A stretch of 64,000 bases of DNA from Rhizodiscina lignyota. Its lineage: Eukaryota. Made by a program: the position numbers and the translations under genes. Of the stretch, positions 12,083 to 44,224 are shown one piece after another (the stretch's first letter is position 1; each line of letters opens with the position of its first letter). The stretch covers positions 1,240,001 through 1,304,000 of the forward strand of contig ML978126.1 of assembly GCA_010015805.1 (NCBI GenBank). The letters are read 5' to 3'. The notes under the pieces are model-generated. The model did not search any database, was not told the origin of the DNA, and was given only the letters and a program-made list of their open reading frames with translations.

Positions 12083-13115
12083 ATGACCGTTCCGGAACAC
12101 ACGAGAAAGCGGAAGCGGCAGACCTTATTGTAAGAGATTCCTAGGCTGCTCATCTTCGCAAAGCTAATTCAACTAGCTAACTACATCCAGAGACCTCACA
12201 GATCACACAATCGTCTGCGTGAAAGTCGGCTTAGACGCACATCCCATTTACGTCCACCGCGAGATCATCTGTAGCGTCAGCCAATACTTCGAAAACGCTT
12301 TCAAGCATGGCTTCCACGAATCGAAAACAAATGAGCCCCTTCTAGAGGACACAAGACTGCAGACCTTCCAGCAGTTCCTGCATTGGCTTTACACAGGACA
12401 AGTCAGTCTCAAACGTTCCGCTGACGAAATCCCGGGAGTTATCGTCGATGACAGGGAAGAATATGAAAGTGGAGATGATAGAAGTGAGGACTCCGAGACG
12501 CAAGTCGACGATGAAACGGATGAGCCCAAGTCACAACTTCCCGTTTCCGAGGACGGGGACGTCAGAGCGGAGATCGATCATTTCCTCTCAGGACCTACTG
12601 AGAGTGTTTTCGCAGGCATAACTCCTACTCGCTTCGCCGAAATCTCCATTGCGCTGCTGGACCTCTACATTTTTGCCCATAGATATGACGTGAAATTATT
12701 GAGACGGGCAGTCATCTCTGCCTTGCAAGCTGAGCAGACTTACGGAGATGAGAATCTGCACTGGCCCGTCGTGTTCAAGGCATTTCACTACCTGCCTGAA
12801 ACATCGCCTATGTGTCAATATATCATCGAGGATGTTGCACACGGTACGGATTTCGATACACAGGGTAAATGTTTTCGAAGATATCACCCATTTATCCCTC
12901 ATGAGCTCCTCCTTCAGGTAGTGATGCGACGCGGTAGAAAGCCAAAGGTGTTCAGACTCTATGTATGCCAGTTCCATGAGCACGAGGGGGACGAGTCTGA
13001 CATGGCATGTTCACCGGATAAAAAGCAACTAGGCTTGCCGGAGATGGAGGCTTTGAGGAACGCTAAAAAAAAGGAAGCTCGAGATCGCAAAGGTCTAGAT
13101 ATAGACTTAGAATAG
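12083..13115 (+). CDS. BTB/POZ domain protein
   Basis: ATG 12083, phase-2 intron 12130-12190 (GTAAGA..CTAAC..CAG), IVCVKVG..VHREIICSVSQYFENAF..FLHWLYTG, an acidic insert, LLDLYIFAHRYD and VCQFHEH. Confidence 0.88.
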
Positions 13116-13540: not shown

Positions 13541-13773
13541 CCGTAGCTTCCGGCTCAATAAGCACTGCGCTAGGAGCGCTACAGCACCGGGGGTATGAGC
13601 GCTCAACTTGATTTAGCTATTGGCACTGTTTAGATCTACATATCTTCGACACCCCTTTTCAAACTCTAGACCGTTAGACTATAACGTTAATACTAACTAA
13701 ACATAGATGAGCGCTTACATCCCCTACGCCGTGGCACTTTCTAGCGCAGTGCCTGTTGAGCCGGAAGTTACGG
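13541..13773. mobile_element. MITE-like foldback element (233 bp), TA-flanked, Tc1/mariner-type
   Basis: Left arm CCGTAGCTTCCGGCTCAATAAGCACTGCGCTAG.. versus the reverse complement of the right arm CCGTAACTTCCGGCTCAACAGGCACTGCGCTAG... The imperfect inverted repeat extends about 75-80 bp, with TA on both sides (13539-13540, 13774-13775). Confidence 0.8.
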
Positions 13774-15984: not shown

Positions 15985-16861
15985 TCATCCGTATCTGTTT
16001 GGAAGCTCTCGCGCAGAAATATTTTCATGTGCTCCTTTGCCTTCTTCTGGTTGCGCTCCCTCTGACTGTTCTACTTGTTGTGTCTTTCTGCCTCTGAAAA
16101 TTGAAAGAGCGATGGCAGCAAACCAGAAGAGATAGAAGCAACCCGCGACTACACTGTACACGATGACCCAGGTTTTGTCTGAACCGGCCAACTGAAGGCC
16201 AAGACCACCATTGATGACTCCGAGGATGATGAAGGTCCGGCCCCACCAACGATGTCCGATGCCGAAGGGGGTCGGCTGCTGCCTCTTCGTCCAGATTAAG
16301 TGGTGAGTAAATCCAACGAGCGGTTGTAGGAAGAGCGCTCCAATGACAATGATACCAATAATCGGGTGGCCATTGCTCGTTACTAGCTGATATCGCGGTC
16401 AGTCACGTTTGCTACTCGCACTTGAAGAATGGGTCCTCACGCTGCCAAAGGTGCCCACGACGTAGAAAGCGATGCCAAATGCTGCAAGAGCAACCACGTA
16501 TGACAATACTTGCCACCCGGCATGGAACCAGACCACGCCTCGAAAGCGGAAAATCTTCATGATCGTTGCTCCAAATGGAAAGAGTATTGTGAACGCAATG
16601 CCCATCATGAGGCCATGTGCCCATATGAGTTGTTGTGTGAGAGATGGACCGCTTGTCTGAACTGGTGCTGCTGCCGCGGACGAAGAGGATGAACTCTCGG
16701 TCGAGTTTCCTCCTCCTCTGGGCGAACCATCGTTGTGGCCGTGAATGCCTTGCGCTGTTGATGTCAGCAGCTACGATCACATTGGGGATACCAGCTGAAA
16801 TACCTAATGCGAGCAGAAGCCCAGCCGACAACACTAGATCAAGCTTATGCACTATTGTCAT
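15985..16861 (-). CDS. Cytochrome b561/ferric-reductase-like integral membrane protein with signal peptide
   Basis: Three exons (introns about 16752-16803 and 16386-16440). Four heme-ligand His motifs in TM helices: WAHGLMM, WFHAGWQ, GHPIIG, GHRWWGR. Confidence 0.82.
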
Positions 16862-18922
16862 ATTGGCTGAGCTTTGCCAACTTCACGATAGGAGTGGTGA
16901 TAAGTGATGAATAACGAATCAATGTGGGTAAGGGATTGAGAAAGTGGAGAAGAGCAAGTGCTCCAAAATGGCTGACAGAAAAGATATAGAGACACAATAA
17001 AGTAAGCTTAAGTTGGAAGTACTTATAGCCAAATGGTACAAATAACGAATGCCGGTCAACGCAGCGGAAGTCCAACTCAAGACTTTCGTCTCTTGCAGTG
17101 CCATTGAATTACTGCATGCCAAGTGTGATGAGGATTCCATGCTGGCGTGGAACAAGCCGCGGTCATCGATACCCTGGGCCAGAGTTTACTAGGTGTTGTG
17201 AAGGTCATGTTGTTTAGCCCTACTGGAACTTTTGCGGAGCCCCGCCAAAGCCCGATGTGTTTGACGTAGTCGTCCTTAAGCCTTGATAGAAGGGAAGCAG
17301 CTGGACGCGCAAGTCCTATCGACGCTCATGGTATCATAGCAGTGTCTTAACTTGACAATCGACCAATTAAGAGACAACTAGTGGTAGATTCTTGCTCTTT
17401 TTGGGTATGGCCCCCCTGCAGTTTGACTTGCAATTGGTACCACTTTCCAGTTGATGTACAGAAGCTTGTTTCAACATTCCCAAAGAAGTTTACTGGGGAG
17501 CCAAGGGACTTAGAATGGGGCGAAGCATCAATCGGAGATGTTAGAGCTGTCTCCGGGTAGTAAGCGTACTTCAGTATTTTTCTTGGCACATTTGATAAAC
17601 CTCAGAAGCTGGGGTGACCGTCGCAGAAGATGAAGATGAAGATTACTATGATTGGGCATTCAAGCGGAAAACATTGGGGGCCAAGGATGGGGATAGGGAG
17701 TTAGGAAATATGAGACACCTATTTCATGCTATGGCAGACAACTGTGAGTTCCAGCATCGGGACGGTACTTCAAGTCGGTATGCCGGCTAACGATTGCGGG
17801 ATTACGCCATTCTCCACGGCGGACGTCTTCCGCAAAGGTGGATGACGTGTTCTATCGCTCAGTAATCGTACATCGTACGTCAAAGTTTCTTGGTAGTCTC
17901 CCATTTTGCTGTCCATCGGCCCGTACACTTTATCGGGATCCCAAGCCTCTGGGCGTCTGGGCCGCGTGGAAGCTGTTGAGGCATGCGAAATGCAAAGTCG
18001 ATCTGTCTTCGATTCGAAACAGAGCAAACTTTGCATACAAGAGTGCAAGGGCCTAATACTGAGACTGCGATACTATCGAGTCCATCTCTCGTCGGGAAGA
18101 TGACGCGGCAAATGTCTCGGAGTCTTGGTTCTCGTGGCTGTGTTGGTGAGCCGGCCTTCCTCTTCACATCGACATCATTTCGCTTCGAAAATGTCGGCCC
18201 TATTCTTCAGCATCTGAGTCGATGATGGCGCCGCTCGCCAATTTTATGTTGGCTTCCAGCTCGAGCACGGCGATTGGAGCCAAGTTGAAGTGACAAGAAT
18301 GGCTGCTAACCATAATTCGGAACTTGCCGTTTGTCACACAGAAACAACCAAAAGCAAAACCTCATAGCAGCTTTGTCATCAAAAGGAATTAAATTTTGAC
18401 ACCGACATGAAAAACTAGACCCTCACAAACAGCTTTAGACATGTATTCTAGCACCCCTTAAGTGTTGCTGGCGATATTCAAAGTGGAGCCAATTTGCTGG
18501 TTCGGAGAGGTCATGTTTGAACAAACATGAGATGCGTCTTGGCGCCTATCCTTGAAACATTACAGTAGGAATGGACTAGCGCATATTAGGCTTCATTTAC
18601 GTCTGTCCACCGCGTCGCGTCTTCTTCGCAACCTCTCAATCAAGTCTGTGCAACATGTCGACGCCAGAACTCAACAACCAGAGAGGCCTGCGGCTACTCT
18701 GTCTCTTGGCGTCCCCGTCATGCGTCAAACCGAGTCAAAAATGACAACATTAGCTCTAACCTATGACGGCGCCGTCCATGGTGCTTCTCTGTGTAGTACC
18801 GACTGGGACAAATTGCCGTCTAAGCTGAGTCAATATCATTGACAGAAGTTCACACTTTCGGTCCTATCGATGTTCTTCGGTGAGCGTGCTGAAGAAGGCA
18901 GATTTCCAAATCCTTTCCATTT

Positions 18923-18955
18923 CGGCAGCACTTTGCCGACAGCTAGCGGTATAAA
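18923..18955 (+). promoter_or_regulatory. Putative Zn2Cys6 site (CGG-N10-CCG) followed by TATAAA
   Basis: CGGCAGCACTTTGCCG at 18923-18938 and TATAAA at 18950-18955, about 120 bp upstream of ATG 19070. Related motifs lie at 21195 and 25991. Confidence 0.45.
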
Positions 18956-19069
18956 CATCTGTTCTATCTAATCGTGTTTTGCCAGTCATAATATAGTCCT
19001 TAGCTACAAATGTAGCAATCTATCGCCGCGCTTCCTTCTGTACCACGCTATTCTCAAACTGCAAGAAAG

Positions 19070-19816
19070 ATGGTCAACGCTATCACTGCCCCTCGCTGCG
19101 AGTTCGGCGTCATCCAGCCGTCGACAAACACCTCGGTCGAAGCTGAGTTCAATTGGATGCTAGTACCAGGGGTATCATGGCATTCCGCGCGGATCTGGAT
19201 ACCAGAGCCGAAGATGGACAGCGATAAGGCATTTGAATCAGTACTGGAAGATGTACGGGCTTCGATTGAAGACGCGGTCAAGAGTGTCATGAGTTGTCAG
19301 CCCGACTACCTCGTCATGGGCATGTCTGTTGAGTCCTTCTGGGGTGGTAAGGATGGGGCGGAGAAATTCACGGCCTGGATGAAGGAACTCTCTGGTCTCG
19401 ATGTTACTACGGGAGCGGCAGCTTGCGAAGCGGCTTTGGACGCTTATAAAGCAAAGAAGATTGGAGTCATAACGCCATATCAGCCAGTTGGCGACAAGCA
19501 AGTGTTCGACTTTTTCACCCAGATGGACTACGAAGTCAAAGCGATACACGGCCTAAAGTGCACAACGATGACGAACATTGCAGATGTGACCGAAGATCAG
19601 ATGAGGGATGCATTTCGAAAAGTCAACGTGCCTGGGACTGACGCACTTATTCAAGCAGGTACTAATCTAGCGTGCGCCAAAGTTGCTGCAGAAATGGAAA
19701 AGGAGCTTGGGAAGCCCGTAATTGCGATCAATACTGCAACTGTATGGCATAGTTACCGGACTAATGGAATCATGGACCAGATCTCAGGATTTGGCTCCCT
19801 GCTGGAGGAACACTGA
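19070..19816 (+). CDS. Asp/Glu/hydantoin racemase superfamily protein (maleate isomerase / arylmalonate decarboxylase-like)
   Basis: GVIQPSTNTSVEAEF, KKIGVITPY, QAGTNL, AEMEKELGKPVIAINTAT, GFGSLL; intronless 248 aa. Confidence 0.88.
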   Translation: MVNAITAPRCEFGVIQPSTNTSVEAEFNWMLVPGVSWHSARIWIPEPKMDSDKAFESVLEDVRASIEDAVKSVMSCQPDYLVMGMSVESFWGGKDGAEKFTAWMKELSGLDVTTGAAACEAALDAYKAKKIGVITPYQPVGDKQVFDFFTQMDYEVKAIHGLKCTTMTNIADVTEDQMRDAFRKVNVPGTDALIQAGTNLACAKVAAEMEKELGKPVIAINTATVWHSYRTNGIMDQISGFGSLLEEH

Positions 19817-26276: not shown

Positions 26277-29200
26277 ATGCCAGGAATACCTGAACAGGAT
26301 GGTATTAACATCGCCATTGATCGTGGCGGGACATTTACAGATGTCTGGGCCTCGATACCGGGCCGTGAAGATGACTTGATTATCAAGCTACTTTCGCATG
26401 ATCCTGCGAACTACTCAGATGCCCCTACTGAAGGGATCAGGAGGGTCCTTGAGATAGCTGGGAACGAAAAGATACCGAGAGGCGATCCTCTCGATCTCTC
26501 CTCCGTGTCAAATATTCGTATGGGAACGACTGTGGCGACGAACTCTCTTCTCGAAAGGAATGGAGAGAGATCGGCACTTCTCATCACGAAGGGGTTTCGT
26601 GACCTTTTGCTCATCGGAAACCAAGCTCGTCCAGATATCTTCGATCTCACTGTGGCCAAACCGGATGTCTTGTACGAAACGGTAGTCGAGGTCGATGAAC
26701 GTGTCACGCTCGAAGCCTTCACAGAAGATCCGGATAAAGCACAGGTTGACGTCAGTTCAGATCCAGCACTGGTTCATGGCGTTTCTGGTGAGGTCGTCCG
26801 CATCCTGAAGAAGCCTGATCTTGGCTCTGTCAGAAAAGAAATTGAACAATTGCACCGAGATGGCTTCCGGAGTTTAAGCATCTGCTTCCTTCACAGTTAC
26901 ACTTACCCAGAGCACGAACTTCAGGTCGCGGAAATAGCGAAGGCGTATGGTATGAGTGTCTCCGTAAGCTCGGTACTGCAACCCATGGTAAGTGCTTTCG
27001 CATCTCCTGAATGGAAAGTTGAATACTGATGTGATAGACAGATCAAGACGGTTCCCAGAGGTCAGTCTGCGACCGCAGATGCATATCTAACACCAATCAC
27101 CCAGAGATACATTCAAGGTTTCTCTAAGGGCTTCCGTGGCGGTCTAGAAGGATCAACAACCACGAGGTGTGATTTTATGCAGAGCGATGGCGGTCTTGTT
27201 GATTTCCGCAAGGTATCAGGATTGAAGGCGATACTATCAGGACCCGCCGGTGGCGTTGTGGGATTTGCAAGAACGTCTTACGACTCCGAAACAGGCAGAC
27301 CGATCATTGGACTCGACATGGGCGGTACAAGCACCGATGTGAGCAGATATGCAGGATCTTACGAGCATATTTTCGAGACCACCACAGCTGGAGTGTCTCT
27401 CCAGACTCCCCAACTCGATATCAACACAGTTGCAGCAGGAGGCGGGTCCAAGCTCGCTTGGGAGAATGGGCTCTTCAAGGCTGGACCAGCGAGTGCTGGA
27501 GCCCACCCTGGGCCCGCTTGCTATAGAAAGGGAGGGCCTTTGACCGTTACGGATGCCAACCTATGTTTGGGCCGACTTATCCCGGACTACTTTCCAAAGA
27601 TATTTGGAAAGAACGAGGATCAAGAGCTCGATTCTGAAGCGACCCGCCGTTTGTTTGACCACATTACTACGGAGGTGAATGCGGATCTGCCAGTAGAGGC
27701 AACCAAGCTTTCCACTGAGGAAGTTGCTGCAGGGTTCCTTAGAGTTGCAAATGAAAGTATGTGCAGAGCTATCCGAACCTTGACAGAAGCCCGTGGTCAT
27801 GATGCAGCACGTCATGACTTGGCTGTCTTTGGCGGTGCAGGTGGCCAACATGCTTGCGACATCGCGTCAAACCTTGGAATTGAACGAATCATTATCCACA
27901 AGTACAGCTCAATCCTCTCGGCTTACGGTCTTGCGCTTGCAGATCTGGTCTGCGATGTGCAAGATCCTCTGTCGTGTCCGTTCAGCGACGCCAATGTGCC
28001 ACAGATCAAGCGTAAAGCAGAGGATCTGCTATCCCGCGCAATGGCAGACTTGAAAAGCCAGGGTCTGACCGACGAAGGCCTTATTGAGTTTGAGACATAC
28101 CTCAACATGCGCTACGACGGCTCCGATACCAATATCATGATATTGAAATCTGGCGAAGACTGGGATCTAGGAAATGCTTTCATTAATCGTCATCGCGAGG
28201 AATTTGGCTTTACAATGCCGAGAGAGGTGTATGTGGAAGATGTAAGAGTTCGTGCGGTTGGCAAGAGTACGACCCATTCGTCAGCTATATCTCCAGCCAA
28301 AGAATTCAGCAAGCTGCAAAAAGGAGCTGTTTCGGACAGCTCTTCAGCGGGCCGAAGATCGGTGTACTTTGAAACCACCGGTTGGAGAGATTCGCCTGTT
28401 TACCTTCTTAGCTCTCTGAAACCCGGCGATCAGGTATCGGGCCCAGCAATCATTATTGATAATACGCAAACCATCTTGGTCACTCCCGGTGCGACTGCAA
28501 CGGCACTAAACAACCACATCGTCATTGATCTTCAAAAGAAAGCATCTCAGTCAGTTCCAGGGTTGCCGACCGTCGTCGATCCCGTCCAGCTTTCTGTCTT
28601 TGGCCACCGTTTTATGGGAATCGCAGAGCAAATGGGTCGCACGCTGCAAAAAACCAGCGTAAGCACGAACATCAAGGAGCGTCTAGATTTCTCCTGCGCT
28701 CTGTTTTCTGCAGATGGCAAGCTAGTTGCCAATGCTCCCCATGTGCCTGTCCATCTTGGTAGCATGCAATACGCGGTCCTGTGGCAGCACGAGCATTGGA
28801 AAGGACGATTGAAAGAGGGCGATGTTTTAGTCTCCAATCATCCAGTTTGTGGGGGGACTCATCTCCCTGACATCACAGTGATAACGCCATACTTTGAAAA
28901 TGGGCAAATCATGTTCTATGTTGCTTCCCGCGGCCACCATGCGGATATTGGAGGTATCCAAGCTGGTTCACTACCGCCAAATTCGACCGAACTGTGGCAA
29001 GAGGGCGCCGCTATCATGTCTGTCAAGCTGGTTGAGAATGGTGTCTTTGATGAAGAGGCCATGGAAGAGCATCTTTTACGTCGTCCAGCTCAGTATCCTG
29101 GGTGCAGTGGAGCACGCAATCTTTCCGATAATCTTGCGGATCTCAGGGCATCCGTAGGAGCGAATCAGAAAGGAATCAATCTAATCCGACAGTTGAGCAA

Positions 29201-30421
29201 GGAATACAGTCTTGATACACTTTTAGTAAGTAAACAGCGATTTTCTCCTGTTGCGTCTACTGACCAGAAATTTCAGTTCTATATGAAAGCCATTCAAGAA
29301 AACGCTGAGGTCTCTGTGCGGGCTCTCATGAAGTCGACATATGACAGGTTCGGGGGCAGACCTTTGGAGGCAATCGATTACATGGACGATGGCAGCCCAA
29401 TCAAGTTGACGATTACCATCAATCGAGATGATGGCTCTGCGGACTTCGATTTCACTGGCACTGGACCAGAGGTATATGGTTCTACGAACGCACCTCCATC
29501 CGTTTCATACAGCGCAATCATCTATGTCCTACGCGCCCTGATCGCAACCGATATACCCATGAATCAAGGGTGCCTCACGCCAATCAATGTCATTCTCCCA
29601 CCTCGCACCATTCTTTCACCATCTCCAGAGGCCGCTGTAGTAGGCGGTAACTGCGTTACCTCGCAGCGCGTGGTCGATGTCATTCTCCGCGCGTTTGATG
29701 CGTGCGCTGCCAGTCAGGGTGACTTGAACAACTTGACCTTTGGGGTGAGCAGCCGCATTGAAGACGGAAAGTACAAACCTGGCTACGGCTATTATGAGAC
29801 GTTGGCAGGAGGTGCCGGAGCGGGAAATGGATGGAACGGCACCTCTGGAGTCCATGTTCACATGACGAACACGCGCATCACCGACCCTGAGATCTTCGAG
29901 AGGAGATATCCTTGCATCTTGAGGGAGTTTGGTTTGAGGAAAGGTATGTACCACCTTTGCAGAACCACAGTTATTGGGAAAGAGACTATTCTGATTCCTT
30001 GATAGGAAGTGGTGGCAGAGGACAATACCCCGGCGGTGAAGGCTGTATTAGAGACATCGAGTTTCGCCGACCAGTGGCCGCTGCAATCTTGTCAGACCGT
30101 CGAGTGAATCATCCATATGGCCTCCATGGTGGTGAGGACGGGGCAAAGGGGCTCAACCTCTTTATCAAGAAGACTCCTGAAGGGGCAGAGAGAGTTATCA
30201 ACCTAGGTCCAAAGAACGCCATCCAGGCGGCGGTCGGAGATCGAATGGTTATCATGACTCCCGGAGGCGGAGGATATGGCGCGGTCTTGGATGATTCTCA
30301 AAAGAATGGAGACGTGATCGTCAATGGAGTGCACAGACTGGACCTTTCTGGCACGAAAGCGGCCCCATTCCGAGCAAGTGGCAGCCTGTCTGGGAGAGCA
30401 GCTATGCAAAACAGCAATTGA
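26277..30421 (+). CDS. OXP1: 5-oxoprolinase (ATP-hydrolysing; hydantoinase A+B fusion), OXP1-like
   Basis: IDRGGTFTD, DMGGTSTDV, HRFMGIAEQMG, NIKERLDFSCA, GGTHLPDIT, HMTNTRITDPE, TPGGGGYG. Introns 26988-27041, 29226-29276 and 29944-30005. Confidence 0.95.
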
Positions 30422-34182: not shown

Positions 34183-36076
34183 ATGATGCGGTTTCATATC
34201 GTATTAGCAGCTCTCTTTGCCCGCGTCTCATTATGCTACCCTCCATCGAAATACGGTTCCGGTGCTCCAACTGCAAAAGTCAAGAATGGAACTTACCAAG
34301 GTTATTACGCCCCAGCCTACGACACTGACAACTTCTTGGGAATACCGTATGCGAAACCTCCTACTGAGAATCGGCGCTTCCGGGTTCCGCAATCACTTGA
34401 CAGCAGTTGGGAAGGTATTCGCGATGCCACTAAGTATGGCCCATTGTGTTATGGATATGGCTTCGATACTGTTAGTCAAGTAGGACAAGGTGGGTTTTCA
34501 GCTCGCCAGTAAGTTTAATCGAAGCTTACTCCTGCAGGCTCTACTGTCTCTGATGATTGTCTGACAATCAATGTCGTTCGTCCTGCAAATGCCAAGGGCA
34601 AGCTTCCGGTGGGCTTCTGGATGCACGGAGGTGGTCTTGTGATGGGCGGTTCGGCCGACAATCGATACAATTTGAGTTTCATCGTGGAAGAGTCTGCGAA
34701 AGCAGGAAGTCCCATCATTGGTGTCAGCATTAATTATCGTCTTTCTGCATGGGGGTTTTTGTATGGGAAGGAGGTGCAAAAATCAGGACAAACCAATCTC
34801 GGGTTCCGTGATCAACGGCTCGCGTTGCACTGGGTCCAAGAGAATATTGAAGCGTTTGGAGGTGACCCGTCCAAGGTATTCTTCTCCATATTTCTTCTCC
34901 GCGAATGGAACGGCAATGTCATTGACCGCTCTGAAGGTTACCATCTGGGGCGAGAGCAGTGGCGCAAATTCCGTTGGTGCACAACTACTTGCCTACGACG
35001 GCCGCGATGACAAGATCTTCTCCGGGGCCATTGCGGAGAGTGGTGCTCCTGCTCGTGTTAACCCCTATCCGACTCCGCAGTCATGGGAGCCCGTGTATCA
35101 GAGTTTGGCCGAAGCCGTTGGATGCAAAGGTGCTTCCGACACCCTTCAATGTCTACGCATTGTATCAGCAGAGGACTTGAACAACGCAATTAATTCGAGT
35201 GCGACAACGGGGGCGAGTTACGGGCCAGTCATCGATGGCGATTTTGTGCAAAAGGCGGCTAGCGTGCAGCTACAGAAGGGCGAATTTGTCAAAGTGCCGT
35301 ACATCATTGTACAGAATGCGGATGAGGGAACGATGTTCGGTCCTCATGGCGTCAATACGACCGAGGAGTTCTTGGCTTACCTCAAGGCGCAAGCCTTTGA
35401 TGATGAAACTTCCCAAACTCTGTCATACCTCTATCCGGACATTCCTGCAATTGGCATTCCCGGGACTTGGAAGGGGCGAGCGAATGCCAGCGCAACATAT
35501 GGCGTGCAGTACAAACGCTCTTCATCAGTCGGAGGCGACCTCTCGCAGCACGCTCCACGCCGTCTCACAACCCTGAGCTGGGCTGCGCAAAAGGTTCCAG
35601 TGTACAGCGGATACTTCGACGTGCTCGTTAATGGACAGCCGTACACTGCGGGTGCCACTCACTTCCAGGAAGTAGCATTCGTTTTCTACAACACAATGGG
35701 CTATGGCTATCCGCAGAACCTGCGTCCAAACCCTCTCGGTGGCATCCTTCGACCCCGATATCTTGCATTGGCCAAGATTATGACTAGGATGTGGATTGGA
35801 TTCATTAGCACCGGAAACCCGAACTCGGCGCTCGATGGTGTTGAAGCGGAGCACTGGCCGGCGTATACCCTTGAAGAACCTATGAATTATATGTTCGACG
35901 CAAACATGACGAGCCATCCGTTTGTGGATACGTACAGGGCCGAGGCGATAAACTATCTGATTGATATCATTATTGCGCGGGAGGGACGCAACTGTACCGG
36001 ATTGGCAGCCTGCAAAGCACCGTATGGTGTGAAGTACGGTAATACGGATGGACCGCCACCGCTTTTGCATTACTGA
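34183..36076 (+). CDS. Secreted type-B carboxylesterase/lipase
   Basis: Signal peptide, [25 protein letters not shown] oxyanion hole, GESSG nucleophile elbow, THFQEV. Introns 34490-34537 and 34876-34936. Confidence 0.93.
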
Positions 36077-37300
36077 ATAGATAGTCTATGTAGGTATGCA
36101 TCATCAGCTTCTCCTTTACAAAGATAGAATATGCTCGAGCCTTGCCCGTGATCTCCGCAGGAGAGACTCACAGGAGACTCCTTCGCAATATCGCAGGGCA
36201 CTTGCAACGTAGGGTTTATGTTCAGAGTTGATGGCAAGACTTTGAATCAAATTGCCAACTGGGCCGATATGTCCTTTACTAGATTTTCGATGAATCTCCA
36301 AAATCTTATGATAATACACATGCGATGGGTGGAAAGTGTCAAATGTTAGAGAATCATGCACTTATCAACTGGGAGAGCTGAGTGCTGAGCGCTGAGTGCC
36401 GGCTGGCCGTTGAGGGGTTGGAACATGTGTCATTTGCGAGTTCTCTTGCACAGACCAGAGTAGACGCCGCAATAACGTGATGTTCAAATCCAGAGGTAAA
36501 AGCTTAGAGTAGAATAATTTCTTTGGAGCTCATCAGCCTTTCGTGCACATAAACAGTTCCAAGGGCAATTATGAGGTGCTTGAGCGGAACCATCAACTTC
36601 GCAATTCTACAAAGCGCTGGTGAAAAAACAGTCATCGTAAACTATATTGCCAAACTTTGATAGATTACCATTGTACTTGCCAGAAGAATAGCTTCAAAGC
36701 GTTTGTCGTTCGTGTGCTTCAAAAGCTCGGCCGACGAGCAGGCTTCGAATGAGATGGTCAATCTTCATAATGCAACCACTCTAAAAGAATAAACTTAAGC
36801 CGGTAGTCTGAAAAGACGCTTACAGAGAACCTTAAATGATGTTTTATTTGCACTAATAATGTCTCGTTGACAGATTTGTTGTTGTTGCGCAAGATCTGGG
36901 AGGAGATGTTAACGGTGAATTGAACGAAGCCCATATCCCACCACATCCTCCATTCTTTCCAATACCTCTTCAAATCAAAATAGAAGCTTACTAAGCACTA
37001 GTACGGCGGTGAATTTATAGAGAGTGCAAATGTATTGCGGTTATCAATCGTGCATTGGTCTAAGAGGCAAACGTGAGTTGTAGCGATTAAGTGGTGTGGT
37101 TCAACCGAGCATCTGAGTACCATTCCTATCGACTGTACGCCCCACAGCAGGAACGAATTTGATTAGGAAAAAAAAAAGGCAAGCTCGTACTCTTATATCC
37201 CACTTAAGAGAGTATGGCCGTACTCTAAGCCAATACGTGTAAAATGATAAACCGGATACCAAAAAGAAACCCTTTCTCACGCCAGTGCTGGGAAAAGAGC

Positions 37301-37306
37301 AAAAAA
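37301..37306 (-). terminator. RNA polymerase III terminator (T6) of the tRNA-Glu gene
   Basis: TTTTTT on the minus strand, 8 nt after the discriminator base. Confidence 0.75.
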
Positions 37307-37314
37307 GATGATTA

Positions 37315-37501
37315 TTCCGACGCCGGGAATCGAACTGAATTGCTGTTAGATGATGTTGAGAGCGGGTGAGTTGGGTTAGCTTACCCCGGGCCTAGTGAAC
37401 TGTTAGTGATTGGGTGGTATTGGCGGTGAAGAAGGACCTTACCTTTCCGGTACATGCTCTGCTATGAGAGCGGAAGATCCTAGCCCCTAGACCACGTCGG
37501 A
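37315..37501 (-). tRNA. tRNA-Glu(CUC) interrupted by one canonical tRNA intron and two spliceosomal-type introns
   Basis: Exons 37465-37501, 37443-37450, 37385-37391 and 37315-37334 join to TCCGACG TG GTCT AGGGGCTA GGAT C TTCCG CT-CTC-AC CGGAA AGGC CCGGG TTCGATT CCCGG CGTCGGA A (72 nt, all stems paired). Intron 37451-37464 follows position 37. The GT-AG introns are 37392-37442 and 37335-37384. Confidence 0.9.
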
Positions 37502-38269
37502 TTGATGGGAGGGAAGCTAAGTGTGATTATAAAGTAAGCTACCAGAGTTGTAAAAGCGGCGCGGCGGGGTCTTAATCCCGAGGCCTGAGGAATCAAAATT
37601 CTAGATTTTTCACTGTCATACCTCAACAAAGTTTTACGTGATTTCTAAGCCTTATGCCGTCGCGGCTTACGCTAAGCGTAGTCAATCTAAATTATTCGGG
37701 TCTTTACCAGACAACCTTATGTCATGTACATATAGCGGTACAACGTCAACTCATCCAACATCTCACAAACATTGTACTACCAAAAAAGGATACATCAACA
37801 CACATCACAGGCTTCAGCTACCATTTTGATATGGGCCCAATAATACTTTTAAACCACATAATCCATACCTTAACGTCTTTCCGCTATCCTACAATGTTGC
37901 CCACAGATGATGTCAGTTGGGTTGTAGCGCCATCCAGAGTGCCGCAAAGGCCTGAGCGAGCTATCAAATAGCTTACTAGGCACGAACTCTACCACATATA
38001 ACAGCACAATTCCAAAGGAACTTGGGACGTGCAAAGCTCTTAAGTAGCAACCCTCTATTCCGTATATTATTCATTCGATGATACAGCTCATGTTGCACGG
38101 TATCCGAAATCAAGCCCAATCATTTGCCCTTCAAGTCATCAATTTTCATTCCGCAGCAGCTTCTTTCTATACGTAAATTTTAGAAAAGTTCTTTGAGTCT
38201 TGCACGTTTAGTCTCTATTACACGAACTGTACTTTAGATGTTGACTGTCCATTCGGAGCGTCGAGGATG

Positions 38270-40623: not shown

Positions 40624-43600
40624 TCAATGCACCGCCGCGCTGCCCAGCCGCTCTCCCAATCCCACGATCGTGCTCTCCCTGTGCCCATGCGAGCTCTCCC
40701 TGCCCTGGTGCACACCCGTAAGCATATCCACACAGTCGCCCAGCCGGCTCGCCGCCTCATGCAGGAGTTCCCATCTCGTATTCAAGAACATGTCCCTCAG
40801 GAGGACCAACAGGCCCAGACACGCATTTCGATGCGGCGTGCGACTCAGATCCTCCGGGCTCTTGACTCCGCCCACGCGCTGGAGGAAGAGCTGCATATCC
40901 CGCACCCTTTCTTCGTCGCTGTTGAGCGTGTAGACGGGGGAGAGCGGGCCATCGAGCGCGAAACCGTAGGACCAGACGATCAGGGTGGCAAAGTACAGGA
41001 CCCAAGGCCGGTTGAGGAGGAAATCGTCCCGCGCCGAGTAAGTGAAGCCGTGCTGCTCGAGGCCTGTGGAGCTCTGCTGTTCAGGGCGCAATCCTGCCTC
41101 TCCGTCGGGGAGCAGGACTTGCGAGAGGAACCGCAGCGCGTAGAATGTGGCATCCCTCGCGCGAGCCGTTGGTGCCCAAACCTCTTTCATCCGCCGTTGC
41201 GCGCCCGCCGAGTCCTGCGATGTAATGCTGCGTCCAAGAAGTCTGTGCGCACCAGCGAAAATCTGGCAGTCCACAATGTCAACGTGCATCGCCATGTGAG
41301 CCAGATGGTGCAGAACCGTCCTTCCTTCGAAAATATTGTCAGGATCAAGGTCGGGGTGAGAGGTTCGGCCATGCGACGATGTCCGTTGTAGCGCGCTCGG
41401 GTTGTTCTTGAGACTGTCATCAAAATCAATCTTCCAAAAGTCAAACGCGCGAGTCAAACTTCCTCTCCACTTATCCCTTCCACCAAGCGCTTGAGTAACG
41501 CCGAGCGAAGAAACTTGCAAGTCTCTCTGGTTCATGTGCCAGCTCACGCTCAGTAACCCAGCCATTAGAATCGTACGACCGAAGGCGTTCGTGCGGACTG
41601 GTTGACCGTTGAGGGTCTTCTTCAGCCCATCAAGGAATGATGGTGACTTTACACCGTTCTGGTGATTCAGCTGTTCCGCACGTCCTACTTCTGCGCTCGA
41701 TGTCGCGGACCACATGGCTTCATCGCAGGGCAATGGCAGACGCATTTCATGAGCTACCATCACTGCTGAGTGTCCAAACATTGTCGCGTGGATCGAGTCC
41801 ATCACGAAAGCAGCAAACGCCACTCGTCGCGTCGCCTCATTCGAGATCCAATGATTCCACCAGTCGTCTGGAGTCGTAGCCCCCGAGCCGAGTGTACCGT
41901 TAATGCCAACGGAATTGTGACGCGAATCCTTTACACTTGGAGGCGAATCGATGCTCGAACGGCCGATAAGCGAAGAGCCTCTTCTCATCAGCGTCAACGT
42001 GGTCGCATGATGAATGTGTGCACGCTCGTGCAGTGGCCTTGTCGCATACATCTTCTCGAAAATCTCTAGTAAGATGAGTGACTGGAAGACCCAGAGTTTC
42101 GCAGGCGGCCTAAAGTCGGCATCTTGAAAAATCTCCCATCGAATGTTGCATGCAAAGAAATTCGCGAGTTCTGAGCACTGCTGCGTTGTTGAGAATCCGT
42201 GAGTCCTCTCCAGGCAAGACGCCCCAATTGCCATGACTGCGATCAGAAGTAGTTCAGGACAGTGGTTGGCAGAGAATGTAGGACGGTGAAGGATGGGCAT
42301 CTGCGGGTGGAAGTGAATCCAGTACGACGTAATATAATTTTGCATCATGCTGAGTCCAAGCAAATGGTGGTCATCGCGCTTCGCACCATCGAGAAGCTCG
42401 TCCTTCTTGATACTCGTCAGGTGTGTCACATCGTTGAAGCGCATTTCGAGATGTTCCAGGATATGCTGGCGTCTGTCTTCTGATAGCGACGATTCTGGAA
42501 GGTTAGCATCCAGAATACTGTTGACAGCCATTGGGTGTTGTGGAGGCATCGGTTGGGAAAAGTTACCCGAGACTTGAGGGTCGTAGTTGAAATATGGTGC
42601 CTGAAGCCCCATGTTCTGCGACTGTGCCATCATGTTATTCATGTGCGCTGAATAGGCCATGGGAGACGCTCCAGATCCAAACTGAGAATCGTTGAAAAGC
42701 CATGCCGTAAAGTCATCAGCCATTGCAAATGGCGATCGACTGATGCCCTCTCCGCCAAACATGGGCACAGAATACTGAGGCGTCATACTCTCTAGTATTT
42801 GAGCCTCTGTCGCAGCACTCATTCTCATGTCAGATTGGCCCTGATCTATTTGCACTCCGGCTGAAGGTGGATAGCTTGATTCAGTAGGGTGGGAGGTAGG
42901 TGCCATGGTCTGGAACGACGGCGGCGGCAGGGTTGAGAGAGGAGGAAAGTTTTGTTGCGACTGATACTGCGAAGGAGTCGATGTTGGATACTGCTGGTTG
43001 CCTTGTTGAGGCCCTCTTGGAAAAGGTTGCTGACTTCCAGCAGCAGTGTATGGTGACCCATTTATCGACAGCGACTGCATGTTGGAAGCCATCGTGTTCT
43101 GCCTTGTGAAAGAGCCATCAGGTCCGGGTCGACCACCCTGAGGCCCAAAGCTGCTTTGCCGTGCAAGGTTGGGATAATTTTGTTGTGGTCGGTTGCTCTC
43201 GCTCGTTCGATAGCTGTCGGTGCTAGCTGTTCGGTTCAGTGAGGTCCCCATCTGAACATCAGACCCCGGAGACTGAAGGGTTGGATCGAGAGGAGGTGAC
43301 GCTTCTGATCGGTTAGATGAGTTTGTGACACCTGACATGGGAGATTGGGTGGAGAAGGCCCGATCCGGTGGGGGTTGCTGTTGTTGCCCTGCATGAAAAG
43401 AAGCGCCTTGCCGCACGGTCGGCGAATTCGAGGGACCCATTCGCAGTGCATTTTGTTGATTGAGCGCTGCTGTAACAATAGGATTGGGGTTTTGCATAAA
43501 GTTGTCTTTGCGAAGCAGCTGAGATCCACGTGCGGTGTGTCGTTCCTTGTGCCGCGCACACAGGTCCTGACGAACAAACGACCGCTGGCAATCCGGGAAA

Positions 43601-44224
43601 TCGCATCTATAGATTTGTTTCGGATTGTCTGTTAGTTTATTAATTAGCTTCTGTTCGCGTTGTTCGTGATATTGTAGCACCATGTCAGCGGAACGGCCCC
43701 ACAGGGCCGTAGTTGCGGACGAGGCTGCACACGATTAAGTGAACCAGCAGTCGCCAACCACATGGCCGATGAGAGCTCAGAACGTCAAGCGCAATGCGCC
43801 ATTATCGATTCAAGGCTCAGTCGAGCTTTTGCGGGGTGCCTCTATGGTTGAGCGCACACAATCGCTATGAAATGGCAGGAGACTCACGATTCAACTGGTG
43901 TCGATAGAGATGTTCCGCCCTCGAATAGCTCTTCCCACATCCCTCGTGAGGACACTCAAACTTCTTGTCCAGGCCCTTCCTGCTCCTCCTCCTCTTCTTC
44001 GACGAGCCCATGCTCGTGCCCTCAGGACCACCCTGATCCATCTCCTCTTCCCCATCCTCATTCTCTCTCGTCCTCCTCCTTCCCCGCTGATCGTCTGGAG
44101 TTGAAGTCCCAGCAGCTTGGTCCATGGCTGAGGAAGCCGAGTCGAGCTTCATGTGGTGATCGTGTTGCGAGGAGCCAAAATCCGGCGCATGCGCAGAGTG
44201 CATGGTAAGAACCTGGGCGGTCAT
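40624..44224 (-). CDS. C2H2 zinc-finger transcription factor with fungal-specific TF domain (Zas1-like)
   Basis: FECPHEGCGKSYSRAEHLYRHQLN|H joined by intron 43629-43887 to NPKQIYRCDFPDCQRSFVRQDLCARHKERH. Also FHPQMPILHRPTF, EATRRVAFAAF and LPLPCDEAMW. Confidence 0.93.

Follow-up and report, generated by a model that had tools for sequence, protein, structure and literature searches.

In Schizosaccharomyces pombe, the spliceosome removes an intron from U6 RNA, a product of RNA polymerase III (Pol III), and up to four canonical introns can occur in one fungal U6 gene (PMC5855946). These introns are unrelated to each other, and an origin by reverse splicing has been proposed for them (PMC5855946). 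In Schizosaccharomyces, the U6 introns hold a match to the B box, according to the title of a reference in the same paper (PMC5855946). Here we describe a candidate tRNA-Glu(CUC) gene of the fungus Rhizodiscina lignyota that appears to be interrupted by two spliceosomal-type introns, which we call I2 and I3, in addition to a canonical tRNA intron of 14 nucleotides (nt). It lies on contig ML978126.1 of GenBank assembly GCA_010015805.1, within the 64,000-nt stretch that was analyzed (positions 1,240,001 to 1,304,000 of the forward strand). We refer to this stretch as the window and use its coordinates throughout. Like the fungal U6 genes, the locus would encode a small, structured Pol III RNA, with short introns that have canonical donor, branch, and acceptor sites and with several unrelated introns in one gene. 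As in Schizosaccharomyces U6, a Pol III promoter element is associated with an intron. However, the host is a tRNA rather than a component of the spliceosome, and its precursor also has an endonuclease-type intron. Because a tRNA is not a spliceosome component, proximity to the catalytic center is no explanation for the first gain. Splicing of S. pombe U6 has been shown experimentally, whereas that of tRNA-Glu(CUC) is predicted from its sequence.

Fungal U3 genes with two introns are another precedent, and the introns within them have no homology to each other (PMC5832005). The tRNA-Glu(CUC) locus shares the presence of GT-AG introns in a gene for a noncoding structured RNA with fungal U3 (including that of Dothideomycetes), with Rhodotorula U1, U2, and U5, and with ascomycete ribosomal DNA (rDNA) (PMC5832005, PMC5855946). 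However, these U3, small nuclear RNA (snRNA), and rDNA hosts are mostly RNA polymerase II (Pol II) genes or rDNA, unlike tRNA-Glu(CUC). In the section of one paper that deals with them, mRNA-type introns are listed in U6, U2, U5, and U1 snRNA genes and in rDNA only (PMC5855946). A 2025 paper ascribes spliceosomal introns to mRNAs and other transcripts made by Pol II (PMC12530127). Current reviews keep the kinds of nuclear intron apart, with spliceosomal introns in Pol II transcripts and U6, and with tRNA introns being cut by the endonuclease TSEN without the spliceosome (PMC12530127, PMC13149111). The sequence-only reading that led to this analysis had stated that it knew of no described case in a tRNA. 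In agreement, we found no spliceosomal intron in a tRNA gene in the literature that was searched, which left most papers in subscription journals outside its coverage. What appears to be new here is spliceosomal-type introns in a tRNA, combined with a TSEN intron. Such introns in small Pol III genes and other structured RNA genes are known.

As at this locus, there can be up to three introns per tRNA gene in Thermoproteales and other archaea, in Cyanidioschyzon merolae, and in the nucleomorphs of cryptophytes and chlorarachniophytes (PMC4090602, PMC3728597). The ectopic introns of these tRNAs also share with I2 and I3 the positions 45/46 and 53/54, and they too are missed by standard scanners. 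However, they are defined by a bulge-helix-bulge and are cut by the tRNA endonuclease, whereas I2 and I3 are without this structure and have spliceosomal signals. Group II introns interrupt organellar tRNA genes, including chloroplast trnK, trnG, and trnV, and ones in the T arm occur in algal mitochondria. Like I2 and I3, they interrupt tRNA genes, in some cases within the T arm. They are lariat-type introns and are evolutionarily related to spliceosomal introns. However, they run to hundreds of nucleotides and fold into a six-domain ribozyme of their own, whereas I2 and I3 are nuclear and would be reliant on the spliceosome in trans. At about 50 nt, I2 and I3 are ruled out as group II introns on size alone. 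Consecutive excisions at near-adjacent sites have been described for the stwintrons of Pezizomycotina (PMC6616335), and exons of 1 to 6 nt have been reported in plants (PMC4674806). The proposed processing of tRNA-Glu(CUC) resembles that of a stwintron in requiring two successive spliceosomal excisions a few nucleotides apart. In a stwintron, however, one intron sits within a splice signal of the other, whereas I2 and I3 are separate and the intervening 7 nt must be retained.

The tRNA-Glu(CUC) locus is on the minus strand (37501-37315), and its 187 nt fall into seven segments: four exons (E1 to E4) and three inserts. E1 (37501-37465, 37 nt) holds the 5' strand of the acceptor stem (TCCGACG), the D arm with the A box (TGGTCTAGGGG), and the 5' strand of the anticodon stem (TTCCG). 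It ends in the anticodon loop (CTCTCA, with anticodon CTC), at A37. The canonical tRNA intron (TAGCAGAGCATGTA, 14 nt, 37464-37451) follows at position 37/38. E2 (CCGGAAAG, 8 nt, 37450-37443) provides C38, the 3' strand of the anticodon stem (CGGAA), and the first two nucleotides of the variable loop. Insert I2 (37442-37392, 51 nt) is in this loop, at 45/46, and reads GTAAGG...CACTAAC...CTAG. E3 (37391-37385) is a micro-exon of 7 nt (GCCCGGG) made up of the last two variable-loop nucleotides and the 5' strand of the T stem (CCGGG, positions 49 to 53). Insert I3 (37384-37335, 50 nt) lies between G53 and T54 (53/54) and reads GTAAGC...TCTAAC...TCAG. The T loop (TTCGATT), the 3' strands of the T stem (CCCGG) and the acceptor stem (CGTCGGA), and the discriminator A are all in E4 (37334-37315, 20 nt).

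When E1 to E4 were joined in silico by these coordinates, they formed a 72-nt tRNA-Glu(CUC) in which the 7/4/5/5 stems are all paired. The conserved nucleotides (U8, A14, GG, U33, G53-T54-T55-C56, A58, and C61) are all present in this spliced form. The coordinates, piece lengths, and motifs of the sequence-only reading were all found in the sequence, and excision at GT/AG rebuilt the tRNA exactly, as it had claimed. With I2 and I3 removed, ARAGORN called a tRNA-Glu(ctc) with a 14-nt intron, and with all three inserts removed, it called a plain 72-nt tRNA-Glu(ctc). Removal of I2 alone gave no tRNA call. Removal of I3 alone gave a distorted call with mismatched stems and a 49-nt "intron." The locus is without the marks of a tRNA pseudogene or a tRNA-derived short interspersed element, because the stems have zero mismatches and a terminator comes directly after the discriminator, although a very young pseudogene may be without such marks too.

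The intact locus was invisible to these programs. ARAGORN found no tRNA in the raw 187 nt or in a window-wide run, and Rfam at gathering thresholds had no match anywhere in the window. When E values of up to 10 were admitted for 421 nt around the locus, there was still no tRNA match, and one chance match to an unrelated family was reported upstream. These results bear out the earlier prediction that standard tRNA scanners would miss the raw locus. In a separate observation, ARAGORN with its intron option reported a tRNA-Trp(cca) with a 2897-nt intron at 16507-19503 (minus strand). This is almost certainly a false positive in which two distant half-matches were paired.

The 14-nt intron behaves, as judged from its position and predicted fold, like a normal eukaryotic TSEN-type tRNA intron. 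In the predicted fold, the AGAGC of this intron is paired with GCTCT in the anticodon stem and loop, and an anticodon-intron pair is possible between C32 and the G three nucleotides before the 3' end of the intron. ARAGORN puts the intron boundary one base 3' (38/39, with T38), whereas the canonical 37/38 boundary gives C38. In nine long open reading frames (ORFs), GAG codons outnumbered GAA codons (199 versus 143). Therefore, the cognate codon of tRNA-Glu(CUC) is heavily used, which shows that the tRNA is needed but not that this copy of its gene is.

One short repeat links E1 and I3. Nucleotides 20 to 28 of I3 (37357-37365) read CCGCTCTCA and are identical to the last 9 nt of E1 (37465-37473). 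In E1, this sequence is the end of the 5' strand of the anticodon stem together with the loop up to A37, and it pairs with the canonical intron. By a rough estimate, the chance of such a 9-nt repeat inside the 187-nt locus is about 0.03. The copy in I3 could be a rival for the pairing of the small intron or a trace of the origin of I3.

I2 and I3 carry all of the sequence hallmarks of U2-type spliceosomal introns. In context, I2 reads AAG/GTAAGG...ACTAAC...CTAG/G and I3 reads GGG/GTAAGC...TCTAAC...TCAG/T (slashes mark the exon-intron boundaries). They are 64% and 70% C+A, respectively, and 12% and 10% G, and the longest T run in each is 2 nt. The branch A is 11 nt before the 3' end in both, and the acceptors are TAG (I2) and CAG (I3). 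The donor consensus, which is complementary to U1, is CAG/GTAAGT, and it is matched at 7 of 9 positions by I2 and at 6 of 9 by I3.

As a yardstick, we used four introns of the window that were verified by homology and five that are supported by ORFs but unverified. A list of 34 candidates made by joining ORFs was too noisy and was not used. Two of the verified introns are in a carboxylesterase gene on the plus strand (34490-34537, 48 nt, GTGGGT..GCAG; and 34876-34936, 61 nt, GTATTC..GAAG), and their removal reproduces protein P0121 exactly. The other two are in a 5-oxoprolinase gene, also on the plus strand (26988-27041, 54 nt; and 29944-30005, 62 nt), where they were placed by homology to P0001. 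Without them, this gene is a single frame of 1,334 amino acids that aligns end to end with that homologue. In the verified introns, the branch distance is 11 to 12 nt where the motif is visible. The five unverified introns are 52 to 66 nt long with branch distances of 6 to 12 nt, counted from the motif closest to the acceptor. A published figure for regular fungal introns is 50 to 55 bp (PMC4457414).

The sequence-only reading had stated that I2 and I3 match the mRNA introns of the window. This was only roughly right. Their lengths of 51 and 50 nt do fit the verified introns (48, 54, 61, and 62 nt). Both carboxylesterase introns are without an NCTRAY branch motif in their last 40 nt, and the signals of I2 and I3 are nearer the consensus than those of either. 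Therefore, real introns of this fungus can be far less consensus-like than I2 and I3.

We also asked how often such signals occur by chance. Both strands of the 64 kb were searched for a strict pattern (GTAAG-N20-50-CTAAC-N3-15-AG), with the expectation taken from 100 shuffles. There were six matches at five distinct places, versus 0.92 expected, and 0 of the 100 shuffles reached six. I2 and I3, which are adjacent and on one strand, account for two of these places. The remaining three are at 12130-12192 (plus strand), 13664-13718 (minus strand), and 34461-34529 (minus strand). The last of these is on the strand opposite the first carboxylesterase intron, which it probably mirrors by coincidence. 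A looser definition (GT[AG]NG, with CTRAY 5 to 30 nt before AG, 35 to 120 nt long) gave 384 candidates. These were removed singly or in adjacent pairs, and each of the resulting 444 deletion constructs was run through ARAGORN. A tRNA was obtained from 1 of the 444, and that one was the tRNA-Glu(CUC) locus.

Sequences that could direct Pol III are present at the locus. The A-box region is uninterrupted in E1. The B box is split by I3, but across the I3/E4 junction, the acceptor AG of this insert and the adjoining TTCGATTCC together give AGTTCGATTCC, with G53 kept. This agrees with 10 of 11 positions of the B-box consensus, and G52 is lost in the DNA. A terminator-like TTTTTT (37306-37301, minus strand) starts 9 nt past the 3' end of the tRNA, and a second run, TTTT (37296-37293), is downstream of it on the same strand. 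There is no run of at least four T residues between 37551 and 37307. Upstream, also on the minus strand, TTTATAAT (37526-37533) has TATAA at -30 to -26 from the mature 5' end and is a putative promoter element.

A 46.5-kb Logan contig of sequencing run X1 spans 36900-37900 with 0 differences and a word depth of 152. Because this contig agrees with the window, the locus is probably not a misassembly. Run X1 is near-identical to, and maybe from the same sample as, the source of the window, and it does not count as independent biology. No second contig of X1 matched any part of 36900-37900 at 80% identity or more, although a 63-nt partial match to X2 was reported in the same comparison. This is a weak result because a filter omits some records and a 37-nt match might escape. 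The missing match hints that there is no twin copy with the same small intron in X1, but gaps in such a comparison are not proof.

Run X2, an air metagenome, has a 205-nt contig that matches 37444-37506 with 1 mismatch in 63 nt. It has the same 5-nt leader, E1, and 14-nt intron, continues for 7 nt into E2, and is preceded by an unrelated upstream flank. Therefore, tRNA-Glu(CUC) with the small intron is a conserved gene type that also occurs in a second organism or at a second locus. The contig stops inside E2, a single base short of the I2 donor site, and it is therefore silent on I2 there. Its upstream flank is likewise AT-rich, with a TATA-like element at about -30. Metagenomes were also scanned for this T arm interrupted by a GT..AG insert 34 to 64 nt long. 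Two matches were found and rejected as chance because their surroundings are GC-rich and coding-like, without a tRNA 5' half upstream.

The interiors of I2 and I3 show no similarity beyond that of shuffled sequence. Their alignment score was -4 versus a shuffle mean of -1.35, and 1,696 of 2,000 shuffles scored at least as high. No second copy of either insert was found within the window, and no terminal inverted repeats were seen by eye. Therefore, the unlike interiors and the absence of copies in the window suggest two separate gains and not duplication or a recent burst of one element. None of the 72 exon positions was damaged by the two gains. Multiplying introner-like elements have been described in Dothideomycetes, and they are longer than regular introns (PMC4457414). 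Nothing similar to I2 or I3 was found elsewhere in the window, and at 50 to 51 nt they are the size of regular introns. An introner or duplication origin is not backed by these data. We propose reverse splicing of excised introns into a nuclear pre-tRNA that still held its intron, with reverse transcription and recombination as the later steps. The second, unrelated intron might have landed only 7 nt away because a pre-tRNA already at the spliceosome for its first intron would be a favored target. The canonical intron is retained only 8 nt from I2, which would be consistent with invasion of a nuclear pre-tRNA that had yet to be spliced. Two rare, unrelated gains 7 nt apart are hard to achieve by random DNA insertion, and this would favor real splicing.

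Our preferred interpretation, to which we assign a probability of roughly 55%, is that this is a genuine nuclear tRNA-Glu(CUC) gene that gained two independent U2-type spliceosomal introns besides its 14-nt intron. Pol III would transcribe the whole 187-nt unit, through all three inserts, to the run of six T residues. The nuclear spliceosome would then excise I2 and I3 successively by intron definition, retaining the 7-nt E3. The T arm and acceptor stem would form next, and RNase P, RNase Z, and CCA addition would then act. End processing would follow spliceosomal excision because the T arm and acceptor stem form only then. Removal of the canonical intron by TSEN and tRNA ligase would come last. 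More tentatively, and at what we consider somewhat below even odds, the spliceosome would process this Pol III-made pre-tRNA in the living fungus, and part, perhaps all, of its tRNA-Glu(CUC) would come from a gene that undergoes two spliceosomal excisions before TSEN acts. The interpretation is well supported at the sequence level, from which we infer transcription, splicing, the order of the steps, and the origin.

Several observations count against a working gene of this kind. In filamentous ascomycetes, tRNA-Glu(CUC) is usually multicopy. Therefore, one disrupted copy would be tolerable without being spliced. A perfect 72-nt exon set is also what is expected of a recently killed gene. A 7-nt exon between two introns is sterically awkward, and skipping it gives a dead product. 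The A and B boxes are farther apart than those of an uninterrupted gene, by about 115 nt. The absence of T runs in I2 and I3 fits Pol III read-through, but only weakly because seven of the nine comparison introns are also without runs of at least four. The whole precursor is not unusually stable (z = -0.87). Finally, we know of no tRNA with a spliceosomal intron reported across thousands of fungal genomes, though scanners would miss one.

Some of these observations would be explained if the locus were a dead or dying copy of a multicopy tRNA-Glu(CUC) family, with two intron-type insertions that are too young for decay and with intact copies supplying the tRNA. Such a copy would be transcribed weakly, if at all, and would yield no productive splicing. 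We regard this as a serious, though less likely, alternative. Redundancy is usual in tRNA families, the B box is without G52 and the box spacing is extended, and exons that total just 72 nt can survive long by chance. Moreover, the Dothideomycetes are a class in which introner-like elements multiply (PMC4457414). However, the inserts are shorter than such elements, and no copies of them were found within the window. In a genome of about 34 Mb (the size of the X1 contig set), random insertion is very unlikely to place two unrelated inserts 7 nt apart within one 72-nt gene. Both inserts have near-consensus signals, and the exons are undamaged at all 72 positions. The failure of any other X1 contig to match 36900-37900 at 80% or more also argues, weakly, against intact copies elsewhere. 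A different possibility, which we consider improbable, is that the RNA comes from Pol II. The TATA sequence at -30 would then drive a capped noncoding RNA that is spliced cotranscriptionally, with the tRNA released by RNase P and RNase Z and the small intron removed by TSEN. The TATAA at -30 to -26 is consistent with this, spliceosomal introns are normally in Pol II transcripts (PMC12530127), and insect RNase P RNA is a precedent for a formerly Pol III RNA in a Pol II unit (PMC6797745). However, the Pol III features are all retained (the A box, a near-intact B box, and the six T residues 9 nt past the 3' end). Further exons are not evident, and none of eight ORFs in the surrounding intergenic gap has a Pfam match. 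The TATA-like element at about -30 before the unrelated X2 copy suggests that such an element is a normal upstream part of the tRNA gene, which also speaks against Pol II.

Two other explanations seem to us very improbable. I2 and I3 might be ectopic tRNA introns of the bulge-helix-bulge type, cut by TSEN as in archaea, C. merolae, and nucleomorphs, with their GT..AG ends being incidental. Archaeal endonuclease-type introns do occur at exactly 45/46 and 53/54, and some eukaryotes, namely, C. merolae and those with nucleomorphs, have multiple ectopic tRNA introns (PMC4090602). However, positions 45/46 and 53/54 are off the TSEN ruler position, 37/38. The eukaryotic endonuclease measures from the mature domain to 37/38, and archaeal-type ectopic introns need a bulge-helix-bulge. 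No such structure could be drawn for I2 or I3, because at most 2 of 4 central-helix pairs formed in any of nine registers tried for each. Both inserts were mostly unpaired in a free fold and in a fold constrained to the cloverleaf. On these two grounds, the bulge-helix-bulge reading was rejected. In addition, the chance that two arbitrary 50-nt inserts would both have GTAAG, CTAAC at -11, and a terminal AG is an estimated 1e-12. An assembly artefact or a chance resemblance is just as hard to credit, given the agreement of the X1 contig at depth 152 and the single tRNA among the 444 control constructs. A spliced tRNA-Glu(CUC) gene remains the interpretation that we favor.

The locus is in a gap of about 4.5 kb (36.1 to 40.6 kb) between two putative protein-coding regions. 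On one side is the carboxylesterase gene (plus strand, ending at 36076), a piece of which is 100% identical to a Rhizodiscina lignyota protein. On the other is a long ORF (40624-43734, minus strand) with a C2H2-like start and a body like that of a fungal transcription factor. A host protein gene around the locus was considered and rejected because, as noted above, 0 of the 8 ORFs in the gap match any Pfam family. The next-best matches of the carboxylesterase are in Dothideomycetes, and a protein atlas places its family in Ascomycota. Therefore, the window is nuclear DNA of a Dothideomycete-type ascomycete. For the 5-oxoprolinase gene (26301-30421, plus strand), the best database matches are only 73% identical and are from Sordariomycetes (Pleurostoma and Sporothrix), and a 5-oxoprolinase named for Rhizodiscina lignyota is only 60% identical to it. 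The window's own protein was absent among the 120 matches listed. The gene may represent a second paralogue that lacks annotation or has an unusual ancestry.

If our interpretation is true, this would be the first tRNA that requires the spliceosome, and the partition of nuclear intron kinds would be broken. Spliceosome substrates would extend to pre-tRNA, and maturation would follow an unusual order, with splicing ahead of end processing. The gene would also offer a natural test of whether introns can be gained by reverse splicing into an abundant RNA outside the spliceosome. Furthermore, tRNA gene counts made with tRNAscan-type programs could be incomplete in intron-rich fungi. Spliceosomal introns would be able to colonize tRNA genes, and a hidden class of such genes, invisible to scanners, may exist in fungi that gain introns.

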